Origin: Woeseia sp.
GTDB lineage: Bacteria > Pseudomonadota > Gammaproteobacteria > Steroidobacterales > Woeseiaceae
NCBI GenBank assembly: GCA_040904985.1
Contig: JBBDSK010000271.1
Span: 486-64,485 of the forward strand
Reading direction: 5' to 3'
Length of the DNA stretch: 64,000 bases
Numbering within the stretch: the stretch's first letter is position 1; each line of letters begins with the position of its first letter. Below, in pieces: positions 17,961-64,000 of the stretch. Position numbers and translations under genes: made by a program. The notes beneath the pieces are model-generated. The model saw nothing but the letters and a program-made list of their open reading frames with translations. It did not search any database and was not told where the DNA came from.

Positions 17961-18006
17961 CGCGCAAAATTCCTGTCCATGCAGTCAACTTCTGTTGCTA
18001 GACGCC

Positions 18007-18019
18007 AATAATGATTATA
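18007..18019. promoter_or_regulatory. Fur-box-like inverted repeat upstream of the TonB-dependent receptor
   Basis: AATAATGATTATA has the ATAAT-N-ATTAT core of the Fur consensus (two NATWAT hexamers). It lies ~50 nt upstream of the receptor ATG at 18068. Only the core matches; the flanks do not. Confidence 0.35.
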
Positions 18020-43541: not shown

Positions 43542-43661
43542 CTGCTGCCAATCGGTGTGAGTTCGGGAAATTGGACCATATCGCCGGTATGGCCGCCAGC
43601 CGGCGCCTGCTTGTGGCGGAAACCGGAACGCACTAACCTGTTGCGGCATCCGGAATCCGCC

Positions 43662-49732: not shown

Positions 49733-50302
49733 TTTTTAGCAGACCTTTTTCCGCGGTTCACCCTGGCGGGACTGATCGGCACTCAGACTGTGGATACCGA
49801 CATGCTGTTCGAGGGCGGCAGCGAAACCCGGGCGATCGCCCTAGGCATCGACTGGACGTTCCTCGACGTCGGGCGCGTGCGGGCTCGCATTGCCGCCGCA
49901 GATGCCGATGCCGCCGCGAATCTCGCAAATTACGAACAGACCGTCTTGCTGGCCCTCGAGGAAACGGAAAACGCATTGGTGCGCTACTCGCGCCTGCAAC
50001 GAGAGCGCCGCCATCTCCAGGCCGCGGCTGCAGCAGGCAACGAAGCCGCCCGGCTCGCCCGGCTGCGCTTCGACGGCGGGGTCGCCGATTTCCTGCAGGT
50101 ACTGGACGCGGAACGCTCGCAACTGGCGACGGAAGACCGCCTGGTCGAGACCGAGACGCGCTCGGCCGTGGCCCTCGTCGGCCTGTATCGGGCGATGGCG
50201 GGTGGCTGGGCCGTCATTCCGCCGGGAGGCCGATACGGCGCACCGGCGTTCGGCCGACGCGGCGGCTTGCCGCTAATGCAGTATCATTTGCGGCATGAAT
50301 AA
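49733..50302 (+). pseudogene. C-terminal ~170-aa fragment of a NodT/OprM-type efflux outer-membrane factor
   Basis: ADLFPRFTLAGLIG...LGIDWTFLDVGRVRARIAAADADAAANLANYEQTVLLALEETENAL...RLRFDGGVADFLQVLDAERS...VALVGLYRAMAGGW. There is no lipobox and no N-terminal half. Confidence 0.7.
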
Positions 50303-51173
50303 GAGCAGGACGACGCCTGCGTCTCTCGCCCCGGTCTTGTGCCGCCATTTTCGGTGGTGCTGTCTTTTGGCTGGCGCCATGGTACTCGTTGCCTGTGACG
50401 CACTGCGGCCGGTTGAAATTCCGATCCCGACCCGGTTCCACGACGGCGGGATTGGCCAGACCAAAGAACTGGTCATCTTCCTGCCAGGTCTGGGGGACGG
50501 CATAGAAGCATTCGAACGCGCAGGCTTCATCGACCAGCTTCGACGATCCAGACGGCCGCTTGACTCCGTTTCCGTCGATGCCCACTTCGGATACTACATT
50601 AACGGCTCGATCAGCAGGCGTGTCTATGAAGACGTCCTGCTGCCCTACGGCGACTGTGGCTACTCGCGTTTCATCCTCGTCGGCACCTCGCTAGGTGGCT
50701 TGGGAGCAATCGGCCTGAACCACGACTATAGTGACCGGATTGCCGGCATGGTGCTGCTCGCACCCTTTCTCGGCGACGGTTCACTAATCCAGGAAATCGA
50801 GCAGGCGGGCGGCGTGCGGAACTGGAAGCAACAGCTCGACTACGACCCCGAAAGGGAGGGGAAAGCCTGGCTCTGGCTCGAAGACATGGTCGACGCCGAT
50901 ACCGGTACTATTCCCGCCGCCATAATAGCCTATGGGGCAAAAGACAAGTTCGAGCCAGCCGGTGCCCTGCTCGCCCGGTCAATTCCGCCAAACATGGTTT
51001 TCCTTAACAATGGCAGCCACGACTGGAAGACTTGGGCCGCGCTGTGGACGAGCATTCTCGAAAGCGACGGCTGGGAACGGTTCGGCGAGACCGTTAGAGA
51101 TGAGATAGGATCGTCGTCAATAGAGCCCAATCCCGACACACTTACACCACTAACAAAGAGGTGCAAAAGATGA
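50295..51173 (+). CDS. Alpha/beta-hydrolase-fold lipoprotein
   Basis: Lipobox-like CCLLAGAMVLVAC. Segments: VIFLPGLGDG, the nucleophile elbow ILVGTSLGGLGA, LLAPFLGD, NNGSHDW. Confidence 0.65.
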   Translation: MNKSRTTPASLAPVLCRHFRWCCLLAGAMVLVACDALRPVEIPIPTRFHDGGIGQTKELVIFLPGLGDGIEAFERAGFIDQLRRSRRPLDSVSVDAHFGYYINGSISRRVYEDVLLPYGDCGYSRFILVGTSLGGLGAIGLNHDYSDRIAGMVLLAPFLGDGSLIQEIEQAGGVRNWKQQLDYDPEREGKAWLWLEDMVDADTGTIPAAIIAYGAKDKFEPAGALLARSIPPNMVFLNNGSHDWKTWAALWTSILESDGWERFGETVRDEIGSSSIEPNPDTLTPLTKRCKR

Positions 51174-51607
51174 ACCGAAACCTCGTCCTTATTTGTTTAC
51201 TTTTCTTGACGCTGATTGCCGCCGATGCATCGGCACGCGACACTGTCAAGCAGTGGCGCATCGCGGATGTCCTGACGAATCAAGCGTACGCCGAGCGCCT
51301 GCAAGGAGTGTCCTTTTTCTTCGGTGAGCAAGTGTACCCGGCCGTTGTCGAAAGCCTCGGCGAGTATCGCACCAACAAGAAAACCAATGGCTTCAACAAG
51401 ACCGACGAGGAGGCTTGTCAGTGGGTGATGCTATCAGCGCTCCTGGCGCTGCACGAGCGAGCGCAAGCCGTCGGCGCCAATGCTGTGGTGAACATACGTT
51501 CGAACTACAAGAACAACGAAGTCAGCAGCGAGACAGAATACACCTGCGGCTCTGGTGCACTAATGTCGGGCGTGGCACTTATCGGCACCTTCGTGAGGGT
51601 TGAATAG
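51170..51607 (+). CDS. Small secreted protein with YbjQ/UPF0145-like C-terminal region
   Basis: ATG 51170 overlaps the upstream TGA (ATGA), with AAGAGG upstream. Signal peptide: MNRNLVLICLLFLTLIAADASA. Also VGANAVVNIRSNY...GVALIGTFVRV. The family call is tentative. Confidence 0.5.
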   Translation: MNRNLVLICLLFLTLIAADASARDTVKQWRIADVLTNQAYAERLQGVSFFFGEQVYPAVVESLGEYRTNKKTNGFNKTDEEACQWVMLSALLALHERAQAVGANAVVNIRSNYKNNEVSSETEYTCGSGALMSGVALIGTFVRVE

Positions 51608-51667
51608 CGACAAGTGCAGGCATGGGGCAGGGTCGCCTGTCGTCAGATTCCTTTAGAAATCGATGCG

Positions 51668-52894
51668 TCAAATGTGGCGGCGAAAAATCAGTGAAGTATT
51701 GATGCCGCCGAAGGCAAAGTTGTTGTTCATCACGTGTTCGACGTCGAGATCGCGGCCACTGCCGACGATGTAATCCATCGGCGCGCATGCTGGGTCCACG
51801 TTTTCCAGGTTAATCGTCGGCGCAAACCAGCCATTGTTCATCATCTGGATAGCAAGCCACGATTCAAGCGCACCACAGGCGCCCAGCGTGTGCCCGGTGT
51901 AGCTCTTGATCGAACTGATAGGCACATTGTTACCGAAGACATTGAAGGTGGCCGCCGTCTCCGCGATATCACCGCGATCAGTCGCCGTACCGTGCGCACT
52001 CACGTAGCCTATCGCCTGCGGGGCGAGACCCGCGCTTTCGAGCGCCAGCTCTATCACGCGCTGCATCGTTTCGGACGACGGCTGCGTGACATGCGCACCG
52101 TCCGAGTTGGAATCGAAGCCTACGATCTCGGCATAGATTGTTGCGCCCCGCGCGATAGCGTGGTCGCGGCGTTCAACAATCATAGTGCAGGCTCCTTCGC
52201 CAATTACTAGACCGTCCCGATCCCGGTCGAACGGACGCGGCGTCGCTTCCGGATTGTTGTTCCGCGTGCTGGTGGCGTACAGCGTATCAAATACCGCAGC
52301 CTGCGTAGGGCACAGTTCCTCCCCGCCCCCGGCAAGCATGATGTCCTGCAATCCACTACGGATTGCCTCATAGGCGTAGCCGATTCCCTGGCTGCCCGAC
52401 GTGCATGCGCTGGACGTGGTGATAACGCGGCCCTTCAGGCCGAAAAAGACGCCAACGTTCACGGGCGCCGTGTGCCCCATCATCCTTATGTAGGTCGTCG
52501 CGGTAATGCCGTCGAGGCTCCTGCTTAACAGCATGTTCGCAAAGTCCCTAGTGGCATCGGTGCTGCCCGATGATGAACCGTAGGCAACTCCCACGCGCCC
52601 TGACTGCAGAACTGGGTCGTTCAACAATCCCGAGTCGCGGAGTGCCATTTCGCTGGCCGCGGTCGCCATCAGAGCCACGCGCCCCATGCTCCGCGTTTTC
52701 TTGCGTGTAAAGCTTTGCGGCGGGGTAAAGTCCGGCACCGGCGCCCCAAGACGCGTGTTCAGCCCCTCGTATACCCCCCAGGACTCCATGTGACGGATGC
52801 CGTTCTTCAGGCTGCGCAGGCGGCCTTCTGCCTCCTCCCAGCTGCTGCCGATGGGCGAGAACGCGCCGACGCCCGTGATCACCACGCGGTGCAT
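51668..52894 (-). CDS. Beta-ketoacyl-ACP synthase (FabF/FabB-like; ApeR-like by position)
   Basis: MHRVVITGVG. Active-site Cys in TTSSACTSGS. His residues in SAHGTATDRGD and YTGHTLGACG. The ATG shares one base with the TGA stop of the upstream KR. Confidence 0.9.
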   Translation of the reverse strand: MHRVVITGVGAFSPIGSSWEEAEGRLRSLKNGIRHMESWGVYEGLNTRLGAPVPDFTPPQSFTRKKTRSMGRVALMATAASEMALRDSGLLNDPVLQSGRVGVAYGSSSGSTDATRDFANMLLSRSLDGITATTYIRMMGHTAPVNVGVFFGLKGRVITTSSACTSGSQGIGYAYEAIRSGLQDIMLAGGGEELCPTQAAVFDTLYATSTRNNNPEATPRPFDRDRDGLVIGEGACTMIVERRDHAIARGATIYAEIVGFDSNSDGAHVTQPSSETMQRVIELALESAGLAPQAIGYVSAHGTATDRGDIAETAATFNVFGNNVPISSIKSYTGHTLGACGALESWLAIQMMNNGWFAPTINLENVDPACAPMDYIVGSGRDLDVEHVMNNNFAFGGINTSLIFRRHI

Positions 52895-53628
52895 CAACAA
52901 AGCCCGCCGTTGATCGATATCACTTGGCGCGTGATGTAACCGGCTTCCGGCGAACAGAGGAAGGCAACCAGTGCCGCCACCTCCTCCGGACGTCCGATCC
53001 GATTAGTGGGAATAGATTCGAGCATCTTTTGTACAGGCAGTTTTTCCGTCATATCCGACTGGATCAGCCCGGGCGCAACACAGTTCACCGTAATCTGCCG
53101 CTTGCCCAGTTCGATTGCGAGAGCTTTAGTGGCACCGATAATCCCTGCCTTGGAGGCGCTGTAGTTAACCTGACCACGGTTGCCCATGATGCCGGAGACG
53201 GAGGAGATGGTAACAATGCGACCCGGCTTCCGCCGCCGCACCATCGGCATGACGATCGGCTGAAGCACATTATAGAGGCCGTTGAGATTCACATCGATGA
53301 CGCGTTGCCAGTCTTCACGCCCGAGCATTGGGAACGAGCCGTCACGCGTAATGCCGGCGTTGCAGACGACACCGTAGTAGGTACCGTGTCGCGCGATGTC
53401 CGTTTCGATCGCTGCCAGCGTCTCATCCGGCATTGTTACGTCGAATCGCAGTAGGCGACAGCTGCCTGAAGCAGAGCGGATTGCGTCTGCAGTGCGGTCG
53501 GCACCGTTACGGTTGCCGGAATAGTGCACGACAGCCTCGTAGCCGTCGCCTGCCAATTTCACAGCAATGGCCCGGCCGATACCGCCACTTGCACCAGTCA
53601 CAAGAATGCTCTCTTGCGGTTCACCCAC
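52894..53628 (-). CDS. 3-oxoacyl-ACP reductase (FabG-like SDR; ApeQ-like)
   Basis: Trimmed to GTG 53628 (VGEPQESILVTGASGGIGRAIA). Motifs: NAG and SSVSG...YSASK. 244 aa. It overlaps the upstream dehydratase by 8 nt. Confidence 0.9.
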   Translation of the reverse strand: MGEPQESILVTGASGGIGRAIAVKLAGDGYEAVVHYSGNRNGADRTADAIRSASGSCRLLRFDVTMPDETLAAIETDIARHGTYYGVVCNAGITRDGSFPMLGREDWQRVIDVNLNGLYNVLQPIVMPMVRRRKPGRIVTISSVSGIMGNRGQVNYSASKAGIIGATKALAIELGKRQITVNCVAPGLIQSDMTEKLPVQKMLESIPTNRIGRPEEVAALVAFLCSPEAGYITRQVISINGGLC

Positions 53629-54103
53629 TTCCTGCCTGCCCCTTTTCTTTTTGCAGTACAGCCAGTCGACCTTCGGCAACAATCTCGTCGCCGAGCAGGA
53701 TGCTGCACTCGTAGGACCCCATGCCGTTGTCGTCGCTGACAAGTTCGCGGCAGGTCACACGATGCGTGAGACCAAGCTCGAAGTATTCAACAGCCGCCCG
53801 GTAATGACGGGTGCCGAGCAGAAATCCGAGGGGCGGGCCGAAGTTCCGCGCACGGGCGCGCACACCTGCGTGAACTGCCACGCATTGTGCCATGTATTCG
53901 ACACCGATGTAGGCGGGCACGCCGCGCCCCGGCGAGAGGAATGCGTCGGTCTCGCCAACGCGCCACTCACACACCGTCACCTCCGAGCCCGACTCCACCA
54001 ATCGCCCCAGCAGGAGCATTGGCGCGCGGTGCAGCACGAAAAACGAGGCGTGCATTCCGGCGTACGCCCGCAGCTCTTCTGGCAGGGCTTGGTCCGCCAT
54101 CAT
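53621..54103 (-). CDS. Hotdog-fold 3-hydroxyacyl-ACP dehydratase (ApeP-like)
   Basis: 160 aa: PAYIGVEYMAQCVAVHAG...LGFLLGTRHY. ATGA overlap with the upstream thioesterase. Confidence 0.7.
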   Translation of the reverse strand: MMADQALPEELRAYAGMHASFFVLHRAPMLLLGRLVESGSEVTVCEWRVGETDAFLSPGRGVPAYIGVEYMAQCVAVHAGVRARARNFGPPLGFLLGTRHYRAAVEYFELGLTHRVTCRELVSDDNGMGSYECSILLGDEIVAEGRLAVLQKEKGQAGSG

Positions 54104-54555
54104 GTGTCTCGCCGCCTGAGCAAATCGAGGCGCTTCTGGACGTTGTCGATCAGTACCTGCGGCGAGCCGATCGAGAGAACCTTTGTTACTGCGTCGACGG
54201 GTACCTGCACGGTACGCGCCTTGGTGTACAGCAAACCAACCTCATCCTCGATTTTGTAGTTCACGACCAGACGCATCTCCCATTCTCGTAGGCAGGCCGT
54301 GACAGTGAACGTTTGTTCCAACAACAACGGGCGCAGGTAGCGCACTGACGTATCCACGACCGGCCACAGGTAGCCGGATGCGGTCATGGCCCTGTAGCTG
54401 TAATCGATGTCGTTCAGCAAGGTACAGCGCGCGGCTTCGAAGTACTTGAAATAGCGGCCGTGCCAGGCGACGCCTGCCGGGTCGATATCGTGAAACGGAA
54501 CCTGAAACATCTCTGCGGCCGTGAGGCGGTCCGCAAAGTCACTTTCTATTTTCAA
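54100..54555 (-). CDS. 4HBT/YbgC-type acyl thioesterase (ApeK-like)
   Basis: FQVPFHDIDPAGVAWHGRYFKYFEAARCTLL. The TTG start overlaps the upstream TGA (TTGA). An internal ATG 45 nt downstream is an alternative start. Confidence 0.75.
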   Translation of the reverse strand: MKIESDFADRLTAAEMFQVPFHDIDPAGVAWHGRYFKYFEAARCTLLNDIDYSYRAMTASGYLWPVVDTSVRYLRPLLLEQTFTVTACLREWEMRLVVNYKIEDEVGLLYTKARTVQVPVDAVTKVLSIGSPQVLIDNVQKRLDLLRRRDT

Positions 54556-55511
54556 CTTCCGGCCTCGACGGTTGCTCGCCCCGAACGTTCCTCAACATGC
54601 CAGAAATCGAAAAAATTGAACCACTGCAGCGGCGCACGAGCAACCTGCCGTTCCAGAGCAGTAGCAAATTTTTGTGCATTCTTTTCTAGGGCCAGTTGTC
54701 GGTTTTCCCGCGGCAGTTCGACTTCTTCGTTGAAAAACTCCATCACGAGACGATAGCGACCCGTGTCGCGAAAGCAGTGTAGCAGGTACACCGGGCACTG
54801 CAGAAGGCTTGCCAGCACATATGGCCCGACGGGGAATTTTGCTATTTCGCCAAAGAACTCAGCATGGCAGACGCGTTCGCCCCGACTGACCGGTACACGA
54901 TCGCCGGCGATCACTACCCACTCCCCGTCACGCACTTTCTCCTTCAAGCGTAACGCCAGAGCGAAATCAACTTCCGTCACCTGTATCAAATTCACACGCG
55001 ATTCGGGCGCCGAGCGCTCAAGCAATGCTGCGAACTTTTGCGCGTGCTCATCGTACATCAGCACGTTGATGATGAGCGTGGGATGACGATGGGCAATGCC
55101 GCGCGAATATTCGAGGTTTCCAAAGTGCGAGCCGATCAGAAGGCAGCCCCTGCCTGAGGCTACGGCGTCAAACAGCATTTTCTCCTGGTCAGGATCCATC
55201 GCTATGCCGGATGGCGCCTGCACCCAGGCGAGATACTTGTCCAACAGCGACTGACCGAAAGTGACGAACTGGCGAAAGGACATCCACATGGTCGGGCGCC
55301 TGCCAAGCGCCTCAGGGTAGCATCGCCGCACCCGCACGAGGTATTCCCTCGATGCCCGCCGCGCCTCGCCGCGTCGAACGAAGAAGTACGCCATCACCGG
55401 CAGCAGGGCCAGGCTGAACGCGGCGCGCCCGACGTGATTGTGGATCCAGACAAGAATGCGCATGCCGAATAACTGCCCTGCTTCCCGGTGTTGTGCCCAG
55501 TGTCGGCTCAT
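54552..55511 (-). CDS. LpxL/HtrB-family lipid acyltransferase
   Basis: 319 aa with an N-terminal TM. Segments: LLIGSHFGNLEYS (HX4E-type motif) and VIAGDRVP. ATGA overlap with the upstream glycosyltransferase. Confidence 0.7.
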   Translation of the reverse strand: MSRHWAQHREAGQLFGMRILVWIHNHVGRAAFSLALLPVMAYFFVRRGEARRASREYLVRVRRCYPEALGRRPTMWMSFRQFVTFGQSLLDKYLAWVQAPSGIAMDPDQEKMLFDAVASGRGCLLIGSHFGNLEYSRGIAHRHPTLIINVLMYDEHAQKFAALLERSAPESRVNLIQVTEVDFALALRLKEKVRDGEWVVIAGDRVPVSRGERVCHAEFFGEIAKFPVGPYVLASLLQCPVYLLHCFRDTGRYRLVMEFFNEEVELPRENRQLALEKNAQKFATALERQVARAPLQWFNFFDFWHVEERSGRATVEAGS

Positions 55512-56266
55512 GGCTTCGCGCGTCTGCCGTGCCGCCCGTCAGAGGAAGCGAGCAAATGCGGAATGCGCGCAATCATGCCGACCAGCAGCCGCGTATGCAT
55601 CCAGGCGATTTCCAGGTTGTCCCCGAGGTAGCGAAAGTGCGATCTAGCCCCCTCCGGGTACCGCACGTGAACCGTGACGAACTCGAGGGGGACGCCGCCC
55701 CACACCGCCCGAACCAGAATCTCGGGGTCAAACGCCATTCGCGTCGGCAGACGGTTCCGCGCCAGCAACGCCATCACCGGACGCAGCGGATAGACGCGCA
55801 GGCCACACATCGCGTCGCGGATCGTACGGCTAAGGGTTTCAAGCCAGATCAGGTACAGGGTGATGTAACGGCCATAATAGCGAAGCGTGGAAATGTCCTT
55901 GCCGAACGCGGGCTCGCCGCAGATCAGGCTGCCCGGGCTGGCTGCCGCTGCCGCGCAGAGCTCCGGGATGTCCCGAGGATCGTGCTGCCCGTCCGCGTCG
56001 ATCTGCACCGCGTGCGAAAAACCGGCTTCGTGCGCGGCGCGAAGGCCGCTCGCCACCGCGCCGCCTTTTCCCAGGTTTTCAGGGTGCCGGATCAGTGTTG
56101 CATCGTGGCCGCCCTCATCGAGGAGGCGCTCGAGGGCTAGGAAGGCGGCGGTCGGGCTAGCATCATCGACTACGACAAGATGATGTCCAAGCGCGGCAAG
56201 CTTCGGCAAAAGGCTTCGAAACTCTTCGAGATGATCGAAATGAGGAACGATCACGCAGGTCTTCAC
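55508..56266 (-). CDS. Family 2 glycosyltransferase
   Basis: Trimmed to GTG 56266 (GTGA overlap with the upstream stop). Segments: CVIVPHFDH, VVVDDAS, QIDADGQHD. Confidence 0.8.
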   Translation of the reverse strand: MKTCVIVPHFDHLEEFRSLLPKLAALGHHLVVVDDASPTAAFLALERLLDEGGHDATLIRHPENLGKGGAVASGLRAAHEAGFSHAVQIDADGQHDPRDIPELCAAAAASPGSLICGEPAFGKDISTLRYYGRYITLYLIWLETLSRTIRDAMCGLRVYPLRPVMALLARNRLPTRMAFDPEILVRAVWGGVPLEFVTVHVRYPEGARSHFRYLGDNLEIAWMHTRLLVGMIARIPHLLASSDGRHGRRAKP

Positions 56267-56640
56267 GGCAGCATTCCGGGGAAGATCAGCCGTCCTTCGG
56301 AGCACGTCCCACCCGCGCCGATGTATGTAAACGTAACGTCAATCTCCGTCACGCGCACGAGTGACAGTTCGAGGATCGCAGGCGGCACAACCACGTTTTT
56401 AAATTTCAGCCGTTTGATCTGCACCGGTACTCGCTTGAGCCCGAAGCAGGTTCCTGAGAAAACAACGGCCCAGTGCACCTGCACGATACCGGCCAGCACC
56501 GGCCTGCCCGGGAAATGACCGACAAAACATTCAAGATCGGGGTCGATCGCCAGCTGATACGTACTTTGCGATGCACCGCTGCCGAACGAAAGAATACGGG
56601 GCAGGCCCGCTGGTACGTCCGTCTCGGCATAGCCCTTCAC
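56263..56640 (-). CDS. Hotdog-fold dehydratase (FabA/FabZ-like; ApeI-like)
   Basis: 125 aa: CFVGHFPGRPVLAGIVQVHW. Confidence 0.7.
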   Translation of the reverse strand: MKGYAETDVPAGLPRILSFGSGASQSTYQLAIDPDLECFVGHFPGRPVLAGIVQVHWAVVFSGTCFGLKRVPVQIKRLKFKNVVVPPAILELSLVRVTEIDVTFTYIGAGGTCSEGRLIFPGMLP

Positions 56641-56646
56641 GATCGG

Positions 56647-57207
56647 TCAGACACCCATGCGCCGCTTGTAGTAACCACGGAACACGTACTCTCCTCCCAC
56701 CAGTGCCGCAATGAGCGCATACGAAATCAGCCCGTTGTACAGAGTCCAGACTTCAATTGACAGAGCAACGGTCCACATCGAAACTAAGCCGTTCACGGCG
56801 AAGAAGCCAGCCCATACCATGGTCAGGCGGTATAGATAGGCAGGGCCATATCTGCTGATGGTCACGCCGCGCGCGCGCACTATGCGCAGCAGTAGCGGTT
56901 CGCCCCGGCGCAGGGAGGCGGCGAAAATCACCAGCAGGGAGAAATTCACGAGCGCGGGGTAGTACAGAAGCATCTCGGTGCTTCGCACGAGGGTCGCGGC
57001 GATGGCATAAACGAAGAACAACAGCAGTAGCGGCAGCAGCATTTGACGTTCCTTCGGCAGCAGCACGCCATAACGCATTGTTAGTAGCATCAAAAGCATT
57101 AGTCCGAGAAAACTCGGAGGCAGGACCTGAATGCCAAAGAAGATGATGAACGGATACGTGGCGACGGCCAGGATAAAAACAATCCGAATTGCCCTGGAAA
57201 GCTTCAC
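56647..57207 (-). CDS. Polytopic membrane protein of the aryl-polyene-type cluster (ApeG-like by position)
   Basis: 186 aa with about 5 TM spans. The GTG start overlaps the ACP stop (GTGA). Confidence 0.7.
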   Translation of the reverse strand: MKLSRAIRIVFILAVATYPFIIFFGIQVLPPSFLGLMLLMLLTMRYGVLLPKERQMLLPLLLLFFVYAIAATLVRSTEMLLYYPALVNFSLLVIFAASLRRGEPLLLRIVRARGVTISRYGPAYLYRLTMVWAGFFAVNGLVSMWTVALSIEVWTLYNGLISYALIAALVGGEYVFRGYYKRRMGV

Positions 57208-57440
57208 AGAGGAATCAAAGCATTCAGTACATCTCCGATCGTTCGCACTTCTCTGAACTTTTCAGGCGCAATCTTTTCGCCGGTCATTTCCTTCAGTTGT
57301 ACAAGCAGGTCCACTGCGTCAATGCTGTCTATCTGCAGTTCTTCGTACAGGTTGGCGTCCATCGAAATATCCGACGCTTCGACATCAAACTGTTCAACCA
57401 GGATTTCACGGATCTTCAGGAATAGTTCTTCTTTGTCCAT
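57204..57440 (-). CDS. Acyl carrier protein
   Basis: 78 aa: LYEELQIDSIDAVDLLVQLKE (DSxD phosphopantetheine site). Confidence 0.9.
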   Translation of the reverse strand: MDKEELFLKIREILVEQFDVEASDISMDANLYEELQIDSIDAVDLLVQLKEMTGEKIAPEKFREVRTIGDVLNALIPL

Positions 57441-57473
57441 ACAGGTATTCTAAATTGCGCTGCGCAAAAAAGT

Positions 57474-58292
57474 CTAAGAAAACCGGGATTGCACGGCCGC
57501 AGGCGCATCCTCATTCGCTGCCTGCACACGCGGCAGTGCGCTGGTAATCAGGATACGCAATGCCTCATTCATGGCATATCGCGCGTGTCGCTGATTGCGA
57601 AAGTCCTGAACCAGGTCGTACAGCGAAACTGGCAGCATGATTCGAATGGAAAAATGAGGCCGGGTCGGCGGCACGTAGTACCAGGGCTTTTCCTTCATCA
57701 GGAACGGGGGCGTACATTCAATCGCGATCGGCAATACACACGCGTCGGCGCGCACCGCCACAGCCGCCGCGCCTGGCTTGAACTCGATCGGCCGGCCAGG
57801 CACGGAACGGGTTCCCTCGGGAAACAGCAGTAAGCTGCTCCCCTTCTTTACCCGTTCCACGCAGCATTTCAGGAGATCCTCAAAGGCATCGTTCGCAATG
57901 TAGTTGGCGGCCCGAACGGTGCCGCGCATGAACGGATTTCGAATAACCGCCTCTTTGATCACGCAGTCGGCATGCGGAAACAGCGAGACCAGGAAGACGA
58001 CATCAATGAGCGTGGGATGGTTGGCAACAATCAGGTGGTTGCGCCCCTCCTCGATGTTCTCCTGGCCGCTGATTTCATAGGTGAGCACGCCAAGGCATTT
58101 CATCATCCATACGAAGGCACCGAAGGCACGCCCGATCAACCGCCGAGCGACAACCTGGCGGGCGACATCGTCGTGGATAAATACGAACAGGAAAGGAAAC
58201 AGCACAAGCCCCATGACGAGCCCGGCAACGCCGAAGACAGCGAAGCTGAGTGCGGTGGCAAACAACCGCCGAAAATAGTCGAGATACTTCAT
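57474..58292 (-). CDS. Lysophospholipid acyltransferase (PlsC/LPLAT family; ApeD-like)
   Basis: N-terminal TM. Motifs: VANHPTLIDV (HX4D) and LLLFPEGTRS. Confidence 0.85.
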   Translation of the reverse strand: MKYLDYFRRLFATALSFAVFGVAGLVMGLVLFPFLFVFIHDDVARQVVARRLIGRAFGAFVWMMKCLGVLTYEISGQENIEEGRNHLIVANHPTLIDVVFLVSLFPHADCVIKEAVIRNPFMRGTVRAANYIANDAFEDLLKCCVERVKKGSSLLLFPEGTRSVPGRPIEFKPGAAAVAVRADACVLPIAIECTPPFLMKEKPWYYVPPTRPHFSIRIMLPVSLYDLVQDFRNQRHARYAMNEALRILITSALPRVQAANEDAPAAVQSRFS

Positions 58293-58391
58293 CGCGCTGG
58301 CGAATTCAGTGAGTATCTTCTTGTAAAGGCCAATCTAAAGTTCTTTGTATCACAGTTGCAGCAGCCAGATACAGCACTGGCTTCACTGATT

Positions 58392-58403
58392 GGATAATTA
58401 TCC
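58392..58403. promoter_or_regulatory. Perfect 12-bp palindrome in the divergent promoter region of the PKS island (candidate operator)
   Basis: GGATAATTATCC lies in the 258-bp AT-rich gap between the LPLAT operon (start 58292, minus strand) and the KS-CLF-halogenase operon (start 58551, plus strand). Confidence 0.3.
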
Positions 58404-58550
58404 CGTAGAATGCAGGATGCCCGAATCAGTCGAGAGAACTGAACATTGCCCACGAACGAGGCTCTGCCCCCCGCTGAACGCCAACTGCACTAGCGATAGC
58501 ACGACCTGCCGCAAATCTCTGGCGGACCGTCGGAAAACCCGGCTGACGAA

Positions 58551-59738
58551 ATGGGGATAGCCATTAGTGCTTTTACCGCGACATCGGCCGCGGGCGTAGG
58601 ATTGGGCGAGCTGGAAGCGGCGATTGTCGAGCGCAAGTCCGGACTCCGGTACAACGATCTCGCAAGCTGCGAGCTCGACACCTGGGTGGGCCGCGTCCAG
58701 GCTCTCGATGCCGGCGCCTTACCGTCGCACCTGAAGCACCTAAACAGCCGAAACAACTTGCTGGCGTGGCTGGGACTGCAGCAGGATGGAATTCTGCCGG
58801 CACTAATGACGCTAACGGAGCGGATCGGCCCAGCGCGCGTCGGCGTAGTGATGGGCACGAGCACAGCCTGCATTGGCAGAACCGAGGAAGCGTACGGGAG
58901 ACTCGAGTCGTCCGGCCGGATGTCCGCGAACTACCGCCAGCCCGAGGTGCATAACTTGCATTCTCCCGGCATTTTCGTGACAGCGGCCACCGGTCTTCAA
59001 GGTCCAGCGCTAACCATCAGCACCGCCTGTTCGTCCAGCGCTAAGGTCTTCGCCACCGCCGCGCGCTGGATCGCGCATGGACTCGTTGACGCAGTTCTCG
59101 TCGGTGGCGTCGATAGCCTCTGTTTCAGCGTCTTGTATGGCTTCAATTCCCTTCAACTGGTGTCTGCGAAGCAATGCCGGCCGTTCGATCTGGGCCGGGA
59201 CGGAATCAACATAGGCGAAGCCGCCGGCTATGCGCTCCTGACTCGCGAGGAGTTGGCACCAGAGGCGGAATTTACACTGCTCGGCTACGGCGAAAGCTCC
59301 GATGCATGGCACATGTCCAGCCCACATCCCCAGGGCAGGGGTGCGATATTGGCAATGAAGCGCGCCTTGCAGTGCGCACAACTCGCACCTGAAACCATCG
59401 ATTACATCAACCTGCACGGCACCGCGAGTTCCGCGAATGACCTCGTTGAGACCTTGGCTCTGGCAGAAACATTCGTAGATCGCACACGCGCGAGTTCGAC
59501 TAAAGGCTGGACCGGCCACGCCCTGGGCGCCGCCGGCATTCTGGAGGCCGTCATTACGCTGAACGCCATGCGGCACGGGTTAATGCCCGGCACCCTCAAC
59601 TGCGAACACCCGGACCCTGAGCTACGCTTTCCGATACTTCAGGAGAACGTCAGTGAATCCATCCGCTACGCAATGACCAACTCGTTTGGCTTCGGCGGCA
59701 ACAACGCCGCGTTGGTCTTTGGCCACCGTGGTGGGTAA
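58551..59738 (+). CDS. Beta-ketoacyl synthase (type II PKS/FAS KS-alpha; ApeO-like)
   Basis: Active-site motifs: TISTACSSSAKVF (Cys), INLHGTASSAND (His), TKGWTGHALGAAG (His). Confidence 0.9.
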   Translation: MGIAISAFTATSAAGVGLGELEAAIVERKSGLRYNDLASCELDTWVGRVQALDAGALPSHLKHLNSRNNLLAWLGLQQDGILPALMTLTERIGPARVGVVMGTSTACIGRTEEAYGRLESSGRMSANYRQPEVHNLHSPGIFVTAATGLQGPALTISTACSSSAKVFATAARWIAHGLVDAVLVGGVDSLCFSVLYGFNSLQLVSAKQCRPFDLGRDGINIGEAAGYALLTREELAPEAEFTLLGYGESSDAWHMSSPHPQGRGAILAMKRALQCAQLAPETIDYINLHGTASSANDLVETLALAETFVDRTRASSTKGWTGHALGAAGILEAVITLNAMRHGLMPGTLNCEHPDPELRFPILQENVSESIRYAMTNSFGFGGNNAALVFGHRGG

Positions 59739-60543
59739 TGTCGCTATCATCGGTTTAGGCGCATGGAGTGAGCGCTTCGCCGACTGGAGCGCTCTGGCCC
59801 GGGGGCTTCGCACGGGCGCTTGGGACAGAAACGCCGTACTACAGCCCGCGCGGATTGCGTCCCGCGAACGCCGGCGGGCGCCGAAACAGGTCAAGATGGC
59901 GATCGAAGTTATGAGCCAAGCCTGCGAAATGGCCGATCTCGAGCCGGCGTCCGTCGCCACCGTGTTCTCCTCCGCGATGGGGGACATGGATATTACCAAC
60001 TACATGTGCAGCGCGCTCGCCATGTCGCCGCGCGAAATTTCGCCGACTCGCTTTCACAATTCGGTGCACAACGCACCGGCCGGCTACTGGTCGATCGCTA
60101 CCGGCTCGCACACCCCCGCCTCTGCCATTTCCGCCTACCGCTACACGGCACCGATGTCCTTTCTCGAAGCGGCCATCCAGGCCATTGAAGAAAACGTGCC
60201 CGTGCTTGTGGTGACGCAAGAAACAGCCGCGCCCGTCGCCCTAAAGGATACCTGTCCGACTGACACTGATTTCTCCGCGGCGATTCTGCTAGCGCCGTCC
60301 GACCGCAGCACAACTCCCGTGGCGACCGTGCGGTTCACCCTTCGCAGCGAGGCCGCAAGCTGGCCGCACACGCCTCACGATCTCGCGAACGCATATTCCG
60401 ACCATCCCGGGGCCGGCTTGCTACCCCTGCTCGCAGCCATTGCCATGCCTGGTGCCGAGCGCGTACCCGTACGCTTGACCTTTCCCGTATCGGCCGGCTC
60501 GAGCATTGAAGTGGTACTCAGCACGGGAGCCGCCGATGGCTGA
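59728..60543 (+). CDS. KS-like chain-length-factor protein (no active-site Cys; ApeC-like)
   Basis: Trimmed to GTG 59728/59731, overlapping the KS stop by 8-11 nt. Sequence: VAIIGLGAWS...RRAPKQVKMAIEV...FHNSVHNAPAGYWSIATG...ASAISAY. There is no Cys where a KS carries its nucleophile. Confidence 0.75.
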   Translation: MVGNVAIIGLGAWSERFADWSALARGLRTGAWDRNAVLQPARIASRERRRAPKQVKMAIEVMSQACEMADLEPASVATVFSSAMGDMDITNYMCSALAMSPREISPTRFHNSVHNAPAGYWSIATGSHTPASAISAYRYTAPMSFLEAAIQAIEENVPVLVVTQETAAPVALKDTCPTDTDFSAAILLAPSDRSTTPVATVRFTLRSEAASWPHTPHDLANAYSDHPGAGLLPLLAAIAMPGAERVPVRLTFPVSAGSSIEVVLSTGAADG

Positions 60544-62110
60544 CCTTTCCTCTCGGTTCGACGTTGCGATTATCGGCGGCGGCCTTTCGGGCCTGACGCT
60601 GGCGCTGCAGCTGAACCAATCGTCGCCGGAGCTGGCGATCATAGTGCTCGAACGAAGTCGCTTACCGCCGCCCGCGGCGGCGCACAAGGTCGGGGAAGCG
60701 ACCGTCGAAATCGGCGCGCACTACCTGGCCCACACGCTTGGGCTGAAACCGTTTCTCGATCGTTCGCAATTGCGCAAGTTCGGCCTCCGCATGTTCTTTG
60801 GCAGCGGCTATCACGACGATCTCGCGAGAGCCGACGAACTGGGCTCGAGCAGATTTTTGCCTGCCACCAGCTATCAGCTCGACCGCGGCACGCTTGAGAA
60901 GAAGCTGATCGAGCTTCTGACCGAACGCGGCGTGGACGTGCAGGGGGACAGTCGGGTAAGGCGCGCCAGCGTGTCCGCAAACAGCGGTGCGCACGAGCTC
61001 GTGGTCGTGCAGGACGGCAATGAACGGCGGATTCAGAGCCATTGGCTCATTGATGCCGCATCGCGCGCCCGCTTACTGAAGCGCGCGCTGAAGCTCGACA
61101 GGCAGCCCTCGCATCGAATGTGCTCGAGCTGGCTCAGGGTGGACAAGGTCATCGACGTCGACGAGTGGTCTGAGTGCCCTGACTGGAAGTCACTATGCCA
61201 CGGCGGGCCGCGGCGCCTGTCTACGAATCATCTGATGGGCCCAGGCTATTGGGCCTGGCTCATTCCGCTGGCGGGGGACCGAACCAGCATCGGCCTGGTT
61301 GCCGATCCCGCGCTGCATCCACAGTCAACTTACGACACGCTCGACAAACTCGAATTTTGGCTGGCCCGCCATCAGCCGATTCTTGCCGAGGCGGTCGCTG
61401 GCGCCAGAAACACGGTCATGGACTTTCGCACACTGAAGAACCTTTCGCAGGACAGCGGGCGGGTCTGGGGCGCACGCTGGGCTCTGACCGGTGAGGCTGG
61501 CGTTTTTGCCGATCCATTCTATTCTCCCGGATCGGATTTCATCGGCATTAGTAACACATTCATCAGCGATCTAATCATTACACATCGCTCAGACGGCGAG
61601 CACGCCCTGTACGCAGAAGCGTACGAGAGGATGTACAAGTCATTTTTCTCCAGCACAATGAGCCTGTACGAGGGGCAGTATCCGGGCTTCGGCGACACAC
61701 GCCTGATGGTGCTCAAGCTTACGTGGGATTATGCCTATTACTGGTCGGTATTGGCTTGGCTGTTCTTCCGCGAAGTCATGACGGATATTTCGTTCCTGCG
61801 CAGCCTTCAGCCGGCGCTGATACGAACGAGCTTGCTAAACCAAAGCTTGCAGAAGGAATTCAGGAAACGTGCAGCGGAGCAGCACCAGGACCGGGGGTGC
61901 GGGCGCTTCTTCGATCAAAGTGCGATACCGGTACTGGCGGGGCTGAACGCGGCGCTTCTCGACAACAGCAGCAATTTACGAGCGGAATTCAGTGGCAATT
62001 GCGAACGTCTCGAGGCGCTGGCGCCACTTCTGTTGTCGCTGCTCGACGGCCATTCTCCTGCGAACCGCGGGAGCTGCAGCCTCCTCGGCGACCTCGCCGA
62101 CCGCTTTTAG
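60536..62110 (+). CDS. Flavin-dependent halogenase-like FAD monooxygenase
   Basis: ATG 60536 overlaps the CLF stop by 8 nt. FAD motif: DVAIIGGGLSGLTLA. The candidate catalytic Lys context is AAHKVGEATVE. The halogenase signature WxWxIP appears as GYWAWLIPL. Also SPGSDFIG. Confidence 0.75.
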   Translation: MADLSSRFDVAIIGGGLSGLTLALQLNQSSPELAIIVLERSRLPPPAAAHKVGEATVEIGAHYLAHTLGLKPFLDRSQLRKFGLRMFFGSGYHDDLARADELGSSRFLPATSYQLDRGTLEKKLIELLTERGVDVQGDSRVRRASVSANSGAHELVVVQDGNERRIQSHWLIDAASRARLLKRALKLDRQPSHRMCSSWLRVDKVIDVDEWSECPDWKSLCHGGPRRLSTNHLMGPGYWAWLIPLAGDRTSIGLVADPALHPQSTYDTLDKLEFWLARHQPILAEAVAGARNTVMDFRTLKNLSQDSGRVWGARWALTGEAGVFADPFYSPGSDFIGISNTFISDLIITHRSDGEHALYAEAYERMYKSFFSSTMSLYEGQYPGFGDTRLMVLKLTWDYAYYWSVLAWLFFREVMTDISFLRSLQPALIRTSLLNQSLQKEFRKRAAEQHQDRGCGRFFDQSAIPVLAGLNAALLDNSSNLRAEFSGNCERLEALAPLLLSLLDGHSPANRGSCSLLGDLADRF

Positions 62111-62379
62111 GTGGGATAGCTGCGCACCCATTGCCGGCCACCCAGTGGTGCAATGACCGCCGGTTCTTGAGCTTGCCGGTGCTGATACTCTACTCGCGCC
62201 ATTGGGTAATCGTGATCGCAGCTGGTAATCATTCTCCACTCGCGACCTATACCTTCGTCGTACTTTTTCTCAGGAAGCACCGGCGGCCACAGGTTTACGC
62301 CACTCCGTCATGCTGGTATTAATGGAAGAAAAGAACGACCCGGCAACAGGGAAATTGGATGGCGACCGGAAGGATAAAC

Positions 62380-64000
62380 ATGCTTTTGATGTCCCACCAT
62401 GCCTGCCGCCGTACCCTGCCTGCCGCGCTCTTGCTTGCCTGCCTACCGTACGGTGCCGCTGCGGACGGCGACGCGCCGCCGGCGGAGGAGGCGATTGACG
62501 AAGTTACAGTGTTCGGCGAACGTCTGCCGGAAAAGTCGCCATTCGGGTTCACGCTGGAAGCGGAAGAGCTGACCAACATGCCGGGCACACAGAACGACCC
62601 CATCAAGGCGGTGGTCGCGCTGCCCGGCGTGCTGACGAACGACGACTTTGATACCGGTGTTGCACTGCGCGGTACGCGGCCCAACGAGAACCGCTATTAC
62701 ATGGACTTCCTGCCGACAGGCTACTTATTCCACTTGACTGGCCTGAGCGTGGTCGATGGCGACATGGTCGCGCAGTTGCGCCTATTGTCGGCCGGTTTCG
62801 GCGTGACATACCAAGGCGTCGTCGGCGGCATTATTTCGGCCAACACCCGAGATCCGCAGGCGGACGAGTGGGGGGGGCTGGCTGACATCAGCCTGCTCGA
62901 CGCCGGGCTGATGGTCGAAGGGCCGGTGAGTCAACGGCAACGGGTGGCGGTATCTGCGCGGGTCAGCTATTACGACCTCGTCATCGGCAATCTCGTCGAA
63001 GACCGCCAGGAGGAGGAGGAAGCGGGCCTCGACATCGTGCAGCTGCCACGTTACACCGATTACAGAGCTCGCTATCAGCTCGACATCGGCGGCGACGGCA
63101 AGCTAGATTTTTTGGTCGACGGCGCCACTGACGACGTACGCTTCAATCTTGATGAGACTTCCGACGAGGCCACGTTGGATCCGGCGCGGGCCGGCCGGTA
63201 CTTGTTCGATATTGCCTACAGCCGCCAAGGCATCGTGTACTCGCAGCCGTGGCGAGCCGGGATGCTGCGCGTCGGGCTCGGCCACATACGCTCCGACCTC
63301 ACCGGCGAATTCGGCGACACCGGCCATATGCAACAGACGAACAGCGAGACCGTATTCCGGTTGGTGAATCGAACGAACATCGCGCGTCACTCGCTGAAGC
63401 TCGGCATGTCCCTCTCAGCCATCGATCTCGAGCAGGATCTCGTTGTTCGTGATAATGGCTGCACCGAATTTGATGTCGAGTGCCTGTACACCGACAAGGA
63501 CTTCGAGACCAGTCGCATCGGGCTGAACTACGCTGGCGGCAATCTCTTTGTCGAGGACGAGATCGCCTTGGCGGAATCCTGGGACCTGACTTTCGGCTTG
63601 GGCTATACGGCCGACGACTACCTCAACGGCTCGGAAGTCGAACCGCGCCTGCGGCTCGACTGGCGAGCGGCGCCGTTCCTGACCCTCTCCGCCGGCGCGG
63701 GGCGCTACTCGCAGATGCCGGATTTTGAATACACCGATCCAAACTTAGGCAACCCCGAGTTGAGCTACGTGCACGCTGACCACTACGTTCTCGGCGCGGA
63801 CGGCGCCCTCGGGCGCGGATATCTCGCGAGCGTCAACGTGTTTTACAAGAACCTAGGCGACATCGTCACCAGCGACCCCCTGACGCGTTACGACAGCCGC
63901 GGCGCGGGCCGCGCCTGGGGAGCCGAGTTTTTACTGCGCAAGGGACTCGGAAAACTCACCGGCTGGACATCGCTGACCTGGTCACGGTCGTTCCGTACCG
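62380..64000 (+). CDS. TonB-dependent-receptor-like outer-membrane protein (3' end beyond the window)
   Basis: Absent from the ORF track because it has no stop in the window. Manual translation from ATG 62380 (GGAAGGA upstream): MLLMSHHACRRTLPAALLLACLPYGAAADG...IDEVTVFGERL...GTQNDPIKAVVALPGVLTNDD..GVALRGTRPNENRYYMDFLP.... The frame is open to base 64000. Confidence 0.8.
   Translation, partial: MLLMSHHACRRTLPAALLLACLPYGAAADGDAPPAEEAIDEVTVFGERLPEKSPFGFTLEAEELTNMPGTQNDPIKAVVALPGVLTNDDFDTGVALRGTRPNENRYYMDFLPTGYLFHLTGLSVVDGDMVAQLRLLSAGFGVTYQGVVGGIISANTRDPQADEWGGLADISLLDAGLMVEGPVSQRQRVAVSARVSYYDLVIGNLVEDRQEEEEAGLDIVQLPRYTDYRARYQLDIGGDGKLDFLVDGATDDVRFNLDETSDEATLDPARAGRYLFDIAYSRQGIVYSQPWRAGMLRVGLGHIRSDLTGEFGDTGHMQQTNSETVFRLVNRTNIARHSLKLGMSLSAIDLEQDLVVRDNGCTEFDVECLYTDKDFETSRIGLNYAGGNLFVEDEIALAESWDLTFGLGYTADDYLNGSEVEPRLRLDWRAAPFLTLSAGAGRYSQMPDFEYTDPNLGNPELSYVHADHYVLGADGALGRGYLASVNVFYKNLGDIVTSDPLTRYDSRGAGRAWGAEFLLRKGLGKLTGWTSLTWSRSFRT

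Follow-up and report, generated by a model that had tools for sequence, protein, structure and literature searches.

Genes at the locus

The DNA analysed, a stretch of 64,000 nucleotides referred to here as the window, carries two facing gene sets (Table 1). Ten minus-strand genes (51668-58292) form an operon in which neighbouring genes overlap by 4-8 nt or lie 6 or 33 nt apart, and a ketosynthase (KS), a chain-length-factor-like partner (CLF) and a halogenase are encoded divergently on the plus strand (58551-62110). Functions were assigned with Pfam and NCBIfam profiles, PDB matches and motifs read in the translations. An earlier note, made from the letters alone, had described the same ten packed genes and the divergent set; gene calling places them where it did, and Pfam and NCBIfam uphold its functions for all 13 genes save the membrane protein at 56647, for which neither Pfam nor NCBIfam searches gave a match.

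Table 1. Genes of the cluster and its downstream neighbourhood; positions beyond 64000 are window-extended coordinates taken from Logan contig L086
Product	Position	Strand	Evidence	NCBI protein
Ketosynthase, ApeR-type (homodimeric/initiating KS)	51668..52900	-	Pfam ketoacyl-synt N and C; NCBIfam PRK09116, 703 bits (cutoff 470)	
3-Ketoacyl-ACP reductase (KR; ApeQ/XanH/FabG3 type)	52894..53628	-	Pfam adh_short_C2, 1e-53	
ApeP-like dehydratase	53621..54103	-	Pfam PF22817 ApeP-like, 7e-16	
4HBT-fold thioesterase (ApeK-like)	54100..54555	-	Pfam 4HBT_2, 4e-12	
LpxL/HtrB-like acyltransferase	54552..55511	-	Pfam Lip_A_acyltrans, 3e-10	MEX2497157.1
Family-2 glycosyltransferase (GT2; ApeJ-like)	55508..56266	-	Pfam Glycos_transf_2, 2e-12	
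ApeI-like dehydratase	56263..56640	-	Pfam PF22818 ApeI-like, 3e-9	
Polytopic membrane protein, ApeG position	56647..57207	-	Position in operon	
Acyl carrier protein (core ACP)	57204..57440	-	Pfam PP-binding, 2e-11; NCBIfam PRK05350, 106 bits (cutoff 65)	MEX2497161.1
Lysophospholipid acyltransferase (LPLAT; ApeD-like)	57474..58292	-	Pfam Acyltransferase, 8e-21	MEX2497162.1
Ketosynthase, ApeO-type (elongating KS of KS:CLF pair)	58551..59738	+	NCBIfam PRK09185, 485 bits (cutoff 407)	MEX2497163.1
Chain-length-factor-like partner (CLF; ApeC-type)	59686..60543	+	Pfam Ketoacyl-synt_2, 1e-22	
Flavin-dependent halogenase (predicted)	60536..62110	+	Pfam Trp_halogenase	MEX2497165.1
TonB-dependent-receptor-type outer-membrane barrel	62359..64000 (window-cut; true end 64410)	+	Pfam TonB_dep_Rec_b-barrel	MEX2497166.1
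Lipoprotein	64480-65127	+	L086	
Small ORF	65244-65459	-	L086	
MMPL exporter	65695-67989	-	L086	MEX2497168.1
LolA_3 (LolA-like)	67986 to ~68543	-	L086, 4e-13	
AMP-ligase	68582 to beyond 69697 (cut by contig end)	-	L086, partial ORF; AMP-binding, 2e-17	MEX2497170.1

The translation of the ApeR-type KS contains readable Cys (TSSACTSG), His (HGT) and His (GHT) motifs, and in the syntenic loci having the gene (L002-L006, L008, L010, L012, L013 and L040) its orthologues share 71-80% identity with it. The ApeO-type KS had 7f28_B (2e-74) and 6qsp_A (5e-67) as top PDB matches; the sole matches of the CLF, 7f28_A and 6qsp_B, are the partner chains of the same entries. The CLF probably starts near 59735 rather than at 59686. 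The KR and the ApeP-like and ApeI-like hotdog dehydratases all scored above their family cutoffs, the KR reaching 349 bits with NCBIfam FabG2 (TIGR01831, cutoff 339). The only PDB match of the ApeP-like dehydratase was 6qsr_B (4e-10). The KS:CLF pair thus resembles both chains of PDB 6QSP, and the dehydratase resembles chain B of 6QSR; we take these entries to be the Xenorhabdus ApeO:ApeC and ApeI:ApeP complexes. Two starts were set at GTG codons, at 53628 for the KR (guided by orthologues of 241-244 aa) and at 56266 for the GT2 (orthologues of 251-252 aa).

The DSID serine motif of the core ACP is readable in the translation. By its position the membrane protein may be the counterpart of ApeG; a protein of 52-65% identity occupies the same place in the closest relatives (L002, L003, L007-L013 and L040). 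The last gene of the divergent set is predicted to encode a flavin-dependent halogenase of the Trp_halogenase family: GxGxxG, HKVGE (K-x-GE lysine) and WAWLIP (WxWxIP) motifs are readable, and its PDB matches are halogenases, including CmlS, tetracycline 7-halogenase and PltA. According to Pfam the lipid-attachment set (LPLAT, GT2 and LpxL-like acyltransferase) is complete in the window; the LpxL/HtrB-like acyltransferase is a xanthomonadin-type feature found in nearly all related loci. The family to which the earlier note had assigned the region, aryl-polyene/xanthomonadin-like type II PKS with lipid-attachment genes, was correct.

The TonB-type barrel gene that starts at 62359 had been overlooked.

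The region had also been described as an island of lower GC content (~47-56% against ~63-80% in the flanks), which windowed GC does not bear out. GC content is 59.6% in the cluster and 61.9% elsewhere in the window, and sliding windows of cluster size (10.4 kb) range from 59.2 to 63.4% over the whole 64 kb without a shift. Between individual 60-nt lines GC varies with a standard deviation of 7 points, inside the cluster as well as outside, so the earlier figures reflect line noise.

Ligase and export genes beyond base 64000

Pfam scans of every gene called in the window revealed no AMP-ligase, second ACP, LolA-like, MMPL, DUF3261, chorismatase, TAL or methyltransferase gene. Six-frame tblastn of the 64 kb with the MMPL, LolA-like, ligase, second ACP, XanB2-type chorismatase and PPTase sequences of relatives returned nothing at E values up to 10. 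In this respect the earlier statement, that ligase, second ACP and export genes are missing from the 64 kb, was accurate. The ligase and the exporter are absent because the window stops before the cluster does.

The window lies on a 70,218-bp NCBI contig from a marine-sediment Woeseia sp. MAG. Its genes match, in order, MEX2497157, MEX2497161, MEX2497162, MEX2497163, MEX2497165 and MEX2497166, and the TonB-type barrel fragment is 100% identical to P0001 (MEX2497166.1, 683 aa). The MMPL exporter P0193 (MEX2497168) and the AMP-binding ligase P0097 (MEX2497170.1), which is 69% identical to the cluster ligase of L085, are encoded on the same contig. Logan contig L086, in reverse complement, is identical to window positions 62514-64000 (100% over 1,487 bp) and continues past the window end; Logan contig L001 covers, also at 100% identity, the stretch from the CLF through the halogenase into the TonB receptor gene. 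The NCBI and Logan contigs are independent assemblies, possibly of the same reads, and so not necessarily independent samples.

On L086 the MMPL, LolA-like and AMP-ligase genes occupy 65,695-69,697, that is 1.7-5.7 kb past base 64000. The AMP-ligase is predicted to be a XanA2/ArcT/ApeH-type hydroxybenzoate:ACP ligase, with the substrate likewise predicted. Its reading frame is open up to the contig end, and both assemblies end inside the gene. A block of ~3.6 kb, comprising the TonB-type receptor, the lipoprotein and the small ORF, parts the halogenase from the MMPL gene.

Layout of related loci

The 13-gene layout, complete or truncated by contig ends, is present in L002-L013 and L040. The small membrane protein had no tblastn match in four of the layout loci (L004-L006 and L009), and in L054 the layout lacks a thioesterase match. 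Wherever a locus with this layout has sequence downstream of the halogenase, a convergent MMPL gene follows within 500 bp. In all loci with at least 7 kb of sequence downstream of the halogenase the MMPL gene is followed by LolA, ligase, ACP and XanB2-type chorismatase, and in all of these except L011 there is a second halogenase. In the relatives a separate XanC-type ACP adjoins the ligase, and the chorismatase comes directly after the ligase-ACP(-halogenase) block. Three relatives at genus level (L082, L083 and L085) have the MMPL-to-chorismatase block, a PPTase and the TonB/lipoprotein pair. Halogenase homologues of 44-47% identity occur in the same kind of cluster in Xanthomonadaceae/Lysobacterales.

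In these xanthomonadin-type relatives the ligase and exporter genes lie downstream of the halogenase and never within the ten-gene operon. The argument that the operon is seamless where they would be expected had presumed an E. coli-type order.

The surroundings are more variable. Orthologues of the TonB-type barrel (71-100% identical) adjoin the cluster in six of seven genomic contexts, in four arrangements; in the window and five related loci the TonB pair takes four different positions relative to the cluster. Among all loci examined only this genome has a halogenase-TonB junction. The sole structural peculiarity here is a local rearrangement that put the TonB-receptor/lipoprotein/small-ORF block between the halogenase and the MMPL gene.

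Comparison with characterised clusters

Xanthomonadin-type clusters include a glycosyltransferase, a LolA-like carrier with adjacent exporter and a halogenase (PMC3949708). The carrier and its adjacent MMPL/RND exporter are present here on the same contig, outside the window. Compared with the Xanthomonas campestris pig/xan cluster (xanthomonadin; XanA2 ligase, XanC ACP, XanB2 chorismatase, XanH/FabG3 KR), taken on the Xanthomonas side by description rather than by sequence, the Woeseia cluster shares a type II KS with CLF-like partner, a FabG-type KR, hotdog dehydratases, acyltransferases and an AMP-ligase (PMC6859482). The relatives also share the ACP and the XanB2-type chorismatase, which in their loci adjoin the ligase. 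Gene order differs: Woeseia has one ten-gene E. coli-like operon and a divergent KS-CLF-halogenase set, whereas the Lysobacterales loci read KS-CLF-GT2-halogenase with KR and LpxL-like genes downstream.

The arcuflavin (xanthomonadin-dialkylresorcinol) cluster of Azoarcus sp. BH72 likewise combines halogenase, AMP-ligase, LolA-like protein, exporter, glycosyltransferase and acyltransferases. It also has an ACP and a XanB2-type chorismatase, the latter being predicted in Woeseia from relatives. The Azoarcus cluster is divided, with azo3906-3921 at one locus and azo0253-0264 at another (PMC3949708), so a non-contiguous arrangement has a precedent. In contrast, the split in Woeseia is only ~3.6 kb on one contig, and Pfam scans of the window genes detected no dialkylresorcinol (Dar-type) genes.

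The ten-gene order mirrors ApeD, ApeE, ApeG, ApeI, ApeJ, ApeK, ApeP, ApeQ and ApeR of E. coli CFT073 and Xenorhabdus doucetiae (PMC8253772). Compared with the E. coli/Vibrio-type cluster (ApeA-R), there is a single ACP instead of the tandem ApeE and ApeF, only 6 nt and no ApeH between the membrane-protein and ApeI-like genes, and no ApeL-ApeM-ApeN between ApeK and ApeO, the thioesterase being followed directly by the ApeP-like dehydratase. MMPL and LolA are encoded outside the operon, past the halogenase gene; no DUF3261/ApeN was found in the window, nor an ApeB SAM-methyltransferase in Pfam scans of all its called genes. The LpxL-like acyltransferase and the halogenase are extra. With its single ACP and without ApeL-M-N in the operon or ApeB in the window, the locus departs from the E. 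coli/Vibrio type.

Flexirubin clusters (Bacteroidota) share glycosyltransferase, LolA, acyltransferase and exporter genes (PMC3949708). The Woeseia KR matches NCBIfam FlxB at 278 bits, but this is below the cutoff of 340 and FabG2 scores higher; no DarA/DarB or other Dar-type gene was found among the window genes, and the host is a gammaproteobacterium. In these respects the locus differs from flexirubin clusters.

Interpretation and alternatives

We consider it very probable that the region contains most of a complete-type, xanthomonadin-like gene cluster for the biosynthesis of a halogenated aryl-polyene lipid, and that the window end cuts this cluster short. The ligase gene is cut in both assemblies, ahead of the place where a second ACP, second halogenase, XanB2 and PPTase would lie, so the completeness of the cluster in this genome is predicted from its relatives.

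The same contig ends could be read as decay: insertion of the TonB/lipoprotein block with loss of the second ACP, second halogenase, XanB2 and PPTase would leave the pathway broken or dependent on housekeeping 4-HBA and the core ACP. The rearrangement-prone neighbourhood, with its shifting TonB pair, fits such a course. On the other hand, the 13 core ORFs and the MMPL and LolA-like genes are all unbroken and as long as their orthologues, the ligase frame runs open to the very end, and contig ends are common in MAGs and no evidence of deletion. We consider decay improbable.

The earlier reading was of a genuinely reduced, minimal aryl-polyene-like cluster, with priming and export supplied in trans or a different, non-aryl product. 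It drew on the ligase and export genes not found within the 64 kb, and it is refuted, on terms that the note itself had set, by their presence in cis a few kilobases on, the second ACP being predicted only, and by the full complement found beside the halogenase in all relatives of the 13-gene layout with enough downstream sequence. Its probability is now very low. A chimeric halogenase-TonB junction, hiding a true genome in which MMPL directly follows the halogenase as in the relatives, is hardly credible either: the junction is unique to this genome, but two assemblers agree on the joins with 100% identity (the NCBI contig; L001 for CLF-halogenase-TonB and L086 for TonB-lipoprotein-MMPL-LolA-ligase), and ~70 bp upstream of the TonB gene are recognisably conserved with L082.

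Proposed pathway

For the complete-type cluster we propose a pathway modelled on the characterised Xanthomonas, Azoarcus, E. coli and Xenorhabdus systems (PMC6859482, PMC3949708, PMC8253772). Judging by all relatives, genes for a dedicated ACP, another flavin halogenase or hydroxylase and a XanB2-type chorismatase would come after the ligase gene, together with a PPTase as in the nearest relatives. The chorismatase would supply 3- or 4-hydroxybenzoate, which the ligase would load onto the ACP. Malonyl units would be added by the ApeR-type KS and by the KS:CLF pair of ApeO:ApeC type, the action of the FabG2-type KR and of the ApeI/ApeP dehydratases would yield the conjugated polyene, and the halogenase(s) would halogenate the aryl head. 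Thioesterase, LPLAT, LpxL-like acyltransferase and GT2 may then transfer the acid to a lipid anchor, for transport to the outer membrane by the membrane protein, MMPL and the LolA-like protein. Halogen, starter and lipid anchor of the predicted product are all assigned by analogy.

Rather than passengers, the TonB-type barrel and the lipoprotein might in Woeseia be a recruited outer-membrane module of pigment-lipid export, perhaps replacing the LolB-like DUF3261/ApeN, which clusters of this type lack. The recurrence of the barrel beside the cluster in varying arrangements is the pattern expected if linkage is selected and gene order is not; still, we regard the idea as unlikely.

Implications

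The cluster is an ordinary addition to the known xanthomonadin/aryl-polyene family and no reduced variant. A false lead, a minimal aryl-polyene cluster without priming or export, is thereby removed, and little is left to follow up. Where a gene seems absent near a window edge, the parent contig should be checked before a biological reading is made. For the organisms, the comparison means that a conserved xanthomonadin-type cluster of 19-20 genes is shared by the Woeseiaceae, Gammaproteobacteria that abound in marine sediment, and by uncultured lineages related to them. Its core operon is E. coli-like in gene order, and in the Woeseia lineage its surroundings are prone to rearrangement.

Starter ligase and export genes downstream of the window

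The earlier note had overlooked a TonB-dependent-receptor-type barrel gene, which begins at 62359 and is cut by the window end. The encoded fragment matched, at 100% identity, an NCBI protein of 683 aa from a Woeseia sp. MAG, whose gene is on a 70,218-bp contig. Exact look-up gave accessions for the LpxL-like acyltransferase (MEX2497157), the ACP (MEX2497161), the LPLAT (MEX2497162), a KS (MEX2497163), the halogenase (MEX2497165) and the TonB-type protein (MEX2497166), and the accessions of the window genes follow a consecutive series along the contig. With a relative's MMPL and ligase as queries, an MMPL transporter (MEX2497168, 764 aa) and an AMP-binding protein (MEX2497170, 357 aa, N-terminus missing) were found on the same 70,218-bp contig, at +2 and +4 relative to the TonB gene.

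The extension was taken from L086, a 7,186-bp Logan contig, which encodes the identical MMPL protein. Its reverse complement equals window positions 62514-64000 (100% over 1,487 bp), and, in window-extended coordinates, it carries the sequence on to 69,699. Independent cover at 100% identity of the chain-length factor (CLF), the halogenase and the beginning of the TonB gene comes from another Logan contig, L001; a 26-mer of the window end had no exact match in metagenome_contigs. The cluster is thus no reduced variant: 3.6 kb past the halogenase, export pair and starter ligase follow in cis (Table). The earlier note had proposed a reduced cluster lacking these genes; as they lie on the same contig past base 64000 (MEX2497168, MEX2497170, L086), that proposal fails on its own terms.

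Both assemblies stop inside the ligase gene. In relatives with enough sequence a second ACP, a second halogenase, a XanB2 chorismatase and a PPTase come after the ligase, and, judging from these relatives, all four are very probably present here too. That the cluster is instead in decay is unlikely.

Within the window, genes were called over the whole length and everything outside the cluster was scanned against Pfam, which detected no AMP-binding, PP-binding, LolA, MMPL, DUF3261, chorismatase, aromatic-lyase or methyltransferase family. The GC3-based gene caller is crude, overlooking the ApeP-like dehydratase and putting the ACP on the wrong strand, so the absence claims rest also on six-frame tblastn of the window with the relatives' MMPL, LolA-like, ligase, second-ACP, XanB2 and PPTase sequences, none of which had a match at E up to 10. 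Two ORFs of the same caller (653-2620 and 16689-18011) lack Pfam matches and translate into unusual, low-complexity sequence. They are probably wrong-strand calls and not genes, so the gene inventory of these two stretches needs a proper gene finder.

Core genes and base composition

The ORF map and translations placed ten genes on the minus strand (51668-58292), with overlaps of 4-8 nt or gaps of 6 or 33 nt, and a divergent trio opposite them on the plus strand (58551-62110). Functions were assigned with Pfam and NCBIfam profiles. In PDB entries 7F28 and 6QSP, one chain was matched by the plus-strand KS and the other by the CLF, and the PDB matches of the flavoprotein are solved halogenases, e.g. 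CmlS, tetracycline 7-halogenase and PltA. Cys/His/His active-site motifs are legible in both KSs, a DSID motif in the ACP, and GxGxxG, K-x-GE and WxWxIP motifs in the halogenase. ORF map, profiles, PDB matches and motifs agree with the gene inventory of the earlier note, which was correct. Translated from the ATG at 60536, the halogenase matched only a 2.5-kb Logan contig in an exact look-up; translated from a TTG start at 60506 it gave no match. Promoter and terminator scans over 51000-62600 were uninformative because the counts equalled those of shuffled controls.

Genes of the cluster and its downstream extension, with positions of associated features in related loci
Feature	Position	Strand	Evidence
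KS	first in minus-strand listing	-	PRK09116, 703 bits
FabG2-type KR	second in minus-strand listing	-	TIGR01831, above cutoff
ApeP-like dehydratase	third in minus-strand listing	-	Pfam/NCBIfam; PDB match 6QSR chain B
4HBT thioesterase	fourth in minus-strand listing	-	Pfam/NCBIfam
LpxL-like acyltransferase	fifth in minus-strand listing	-	Lip_A_acyltrans
GT2	sixth in minus-strand listing	-	Pfam/NCBIfam
ApeI-like dehydratase	seventh in minus-strand listing	-	Pfam/NCBIfam
Membrane protein	eighth in minus-strand listing	-	no family match (Pfam, NCBIfam)
ACP	ninth in minus-strand listing	-	PRK05350
LPLAT	tenth in minus-strand listing	-	Pfam/NCBIfam
KS	plus-strand trio, first	+	PRK09185
Chain-length-factor-like protein	plus-strand trio, second	+	Ketoacyl-synt_2
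Trp_halogenase-family flavoprotein	plus-strand trio, third	+	Pfam family
TonB barrel gene	ends 64410	+	L086
Lipoprotein, 215 aa	64480-65127	+	L086
71-aa ORF	65244-65459	-	L086
MMPL	65695-67989	-	L086
LolA_3	67986 to about 68543	-	open frame; signal-peptide-like N-terminus from TTG start
AMP-ligase	68582 to beyond 69697	-	frame open to contig end
TonB block, L082 and L083	after PPTase		
TonB block, L085	inverted		
TonB block, L084 and L088	on KS_R side		
Deiodinase-family gene	L003 28-669; L006 1139-1774; L013 690-1331; L054 18650-19327		

The GC content of the cluster was 59.6% vs 61.9% in the rest of the window, and cluster-length (10.4 kb) windows elsewhere in the 64 kb ranged from 59.2 to 63.4%. 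GC3 of the cluster genes was 0.65-0.74, except for the ACP (0.53); that of most other window genes was 0.70-0.80. The GC and GC3 island test thus revealed no meaningful shift, and the lower-GC island claimed from sampled lines (47-56% against 63-80%) is not real: these values reflect the scatter of 60-nt lines, whose standard deviation is 7 points both inside and outside the cluster.

Layout in related loci

With the halogenase as query, one genome per species was scanned and 541 relatives were returned. MAGs of Woeseiaceae and uncultured Gammaproteobacteria supply the best, at about 60% identity, followed at about 45% by Lysobacterales/Xanthomonadaceae and Rubrivivax. The 13-gene layout is also found in L002-L013 and L040, complete or truncated by the contig. 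Among these, tblastn with the small membrane protein found no match in L004-L006 and L009; in L054, where the cluster layout is kept, the thioesterase had none. In every locus of this layout (including L054) with downstream sequence, a convergent MMPL gene lies less than 500 bp past the halogenase. In loci with 7 kb or more of downstream sequence, LolA_3, AMP-ligase, ACP and then a XanB2-type (FkbO/Hyg5) chorismatase follow the MMPL, and a second flavin halogenase or hydroxylase is present in all but L011. Some relatives additionally carry a PPTase. The earlier note had taken the positions of an E. coli-type order as normal for the ligase and export genes; this cluster type keeps them elsewhere, past the halogenase, and its ten-gene operon is normally unbroken.

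TonB/lipoprotein block

In the genus-level loci L082 and L083 the order is halogenase, MMPL-LolA-ligase-ACP, halogenase 2-XanB2, PPTase, TonB. These seven genes between halogenase and TonB gene suggested an 8.4-kb, seven-gene deletion in the window, which was ruled out by the ligase and MMPL genes on the same contig. The accession order and L086 show a local rearrangement rather than a deletion: here the block of barrel, lipoprotein and small ORF is placed between halogenase and MMPL.

Of seven contexts examined, six have the barrel beside the pigment cluster, with four different placements or orientations among them; in most loci (window, L082, L083, L084, L085, L088) a 201-224-aa lipoprotein follows it. 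In L087, a 68%-identical homologue has no cluster within 10 kb downstream, the upstream side being cut by the contig start. The more distant loci L002-L081 do not have the block in their flanks, and the Pfam Plug domain was undetected in the barrel even at E up to 1. DNA identity was 83-85% for the barrel vs about 74-76% for the cluster. The barrel and lipoprotein genes show a persistent, positionally variable linkage to the cluster in the Woeseia lineage, which is mildly intriguing.

Other neighbouring genes

In several Woeseiaceae and uncultured gammaproteobacterial MAGs an iodothyronine-deiodinase-family (T4_deiodinase/AhpC-like) gene directly adjoins the halogenated aryl-polyene cluster (Table). 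It might encode a dehalogenase or redox partner. By six-frame tblastn, the window has no homologue of it.

On the side of KS_R, the ApeR-type KS, the conserved neighbour is a YbjQ-like small lipoprotein gene, often with an alpha/beta-hydrolase gene (window 51161-51607 and 50295-51173). The YbjQ-like gene is also present in L004, L008, L012, L014, L040 and L054, and in L088 by position and size; it may mark the cluster boundary or serve the cluster as an accessory gene. In two relatives (L008 18368-19087, L040 18372-18977) the XanB2 gene is directly followed by a gene for a PagL-like lipid A 3-O-deacylase, in keeping with a possible relation of the pigment anchor to lipid A.

Farther from the cluster, two paralogous divergent genes (41529-43910 and 44231-46603) code for TPR-repeat/Sulfotransfer_3 fusion proteins and adjoin a TonB-dependent receptor gene (38683-41361). 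A large hybrid sensor kinase (PAS-GAF-HisKA-HATPase-receiver, 24799-27798) is followed by a MEDS-domain protein (27818-28456).

Cluster type and proposed pathway

Judged by its predicted gene content, the cluster is xanthomonadin-type. Features of this kind are the halogenase and the LpxL-like acyltransferase, the ligase module standing apart, the side-by-side KS and CLF genes, and the pairing of MMPL with a LolA-like gene. The gene order of the core operon resembles that of the E. coli APE operon, but it lacks the ApeB methyltransferase, tandem ACPs with ApeH inside the operon, and an ApeL-M-N block with DUF3261 within it. These three features define the E. coli type, so the cluster should not be classed as that subtype. 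There is precedent for split arrangements: the Azoarcus cluster occupies two loci (PMC3949708). A full-text literature search for Woeseia and 'aryl polyene' found nothing related, so the occurrence of a xanthomonadin-type cluster in Woeseiaceae may be undescribed, although the kind of cluster is already known.

A pathway can be proposed by analogy with characterised systems of Xanthomonas (XanB2, XanA2, XanC, FabG3; PMC6859482), Azoarcus (ArcB, ArcT; PMC3949708) and E. coli (ApeA-R; PMC8253772). The chorismatase would produce 3- or 4-hydroxybenzoate, which the AMP-ligase would put on an ACP. The ApeR-type KS and the KS:CLF pair would extend this starter, and the KR and two dehydratases, acting without enoyl reduction, would yield a polyene whose ring may be modified by the halogenase(s). 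The thioesterase and three transferases would then join the acid to a membrane lipid, and MMPL and the LolA-like protein, perhaps also the membrane protein in the ApeG position, would carry the pigment to the outer membrane, where pigments of this type protect against photo-oxidative damage.
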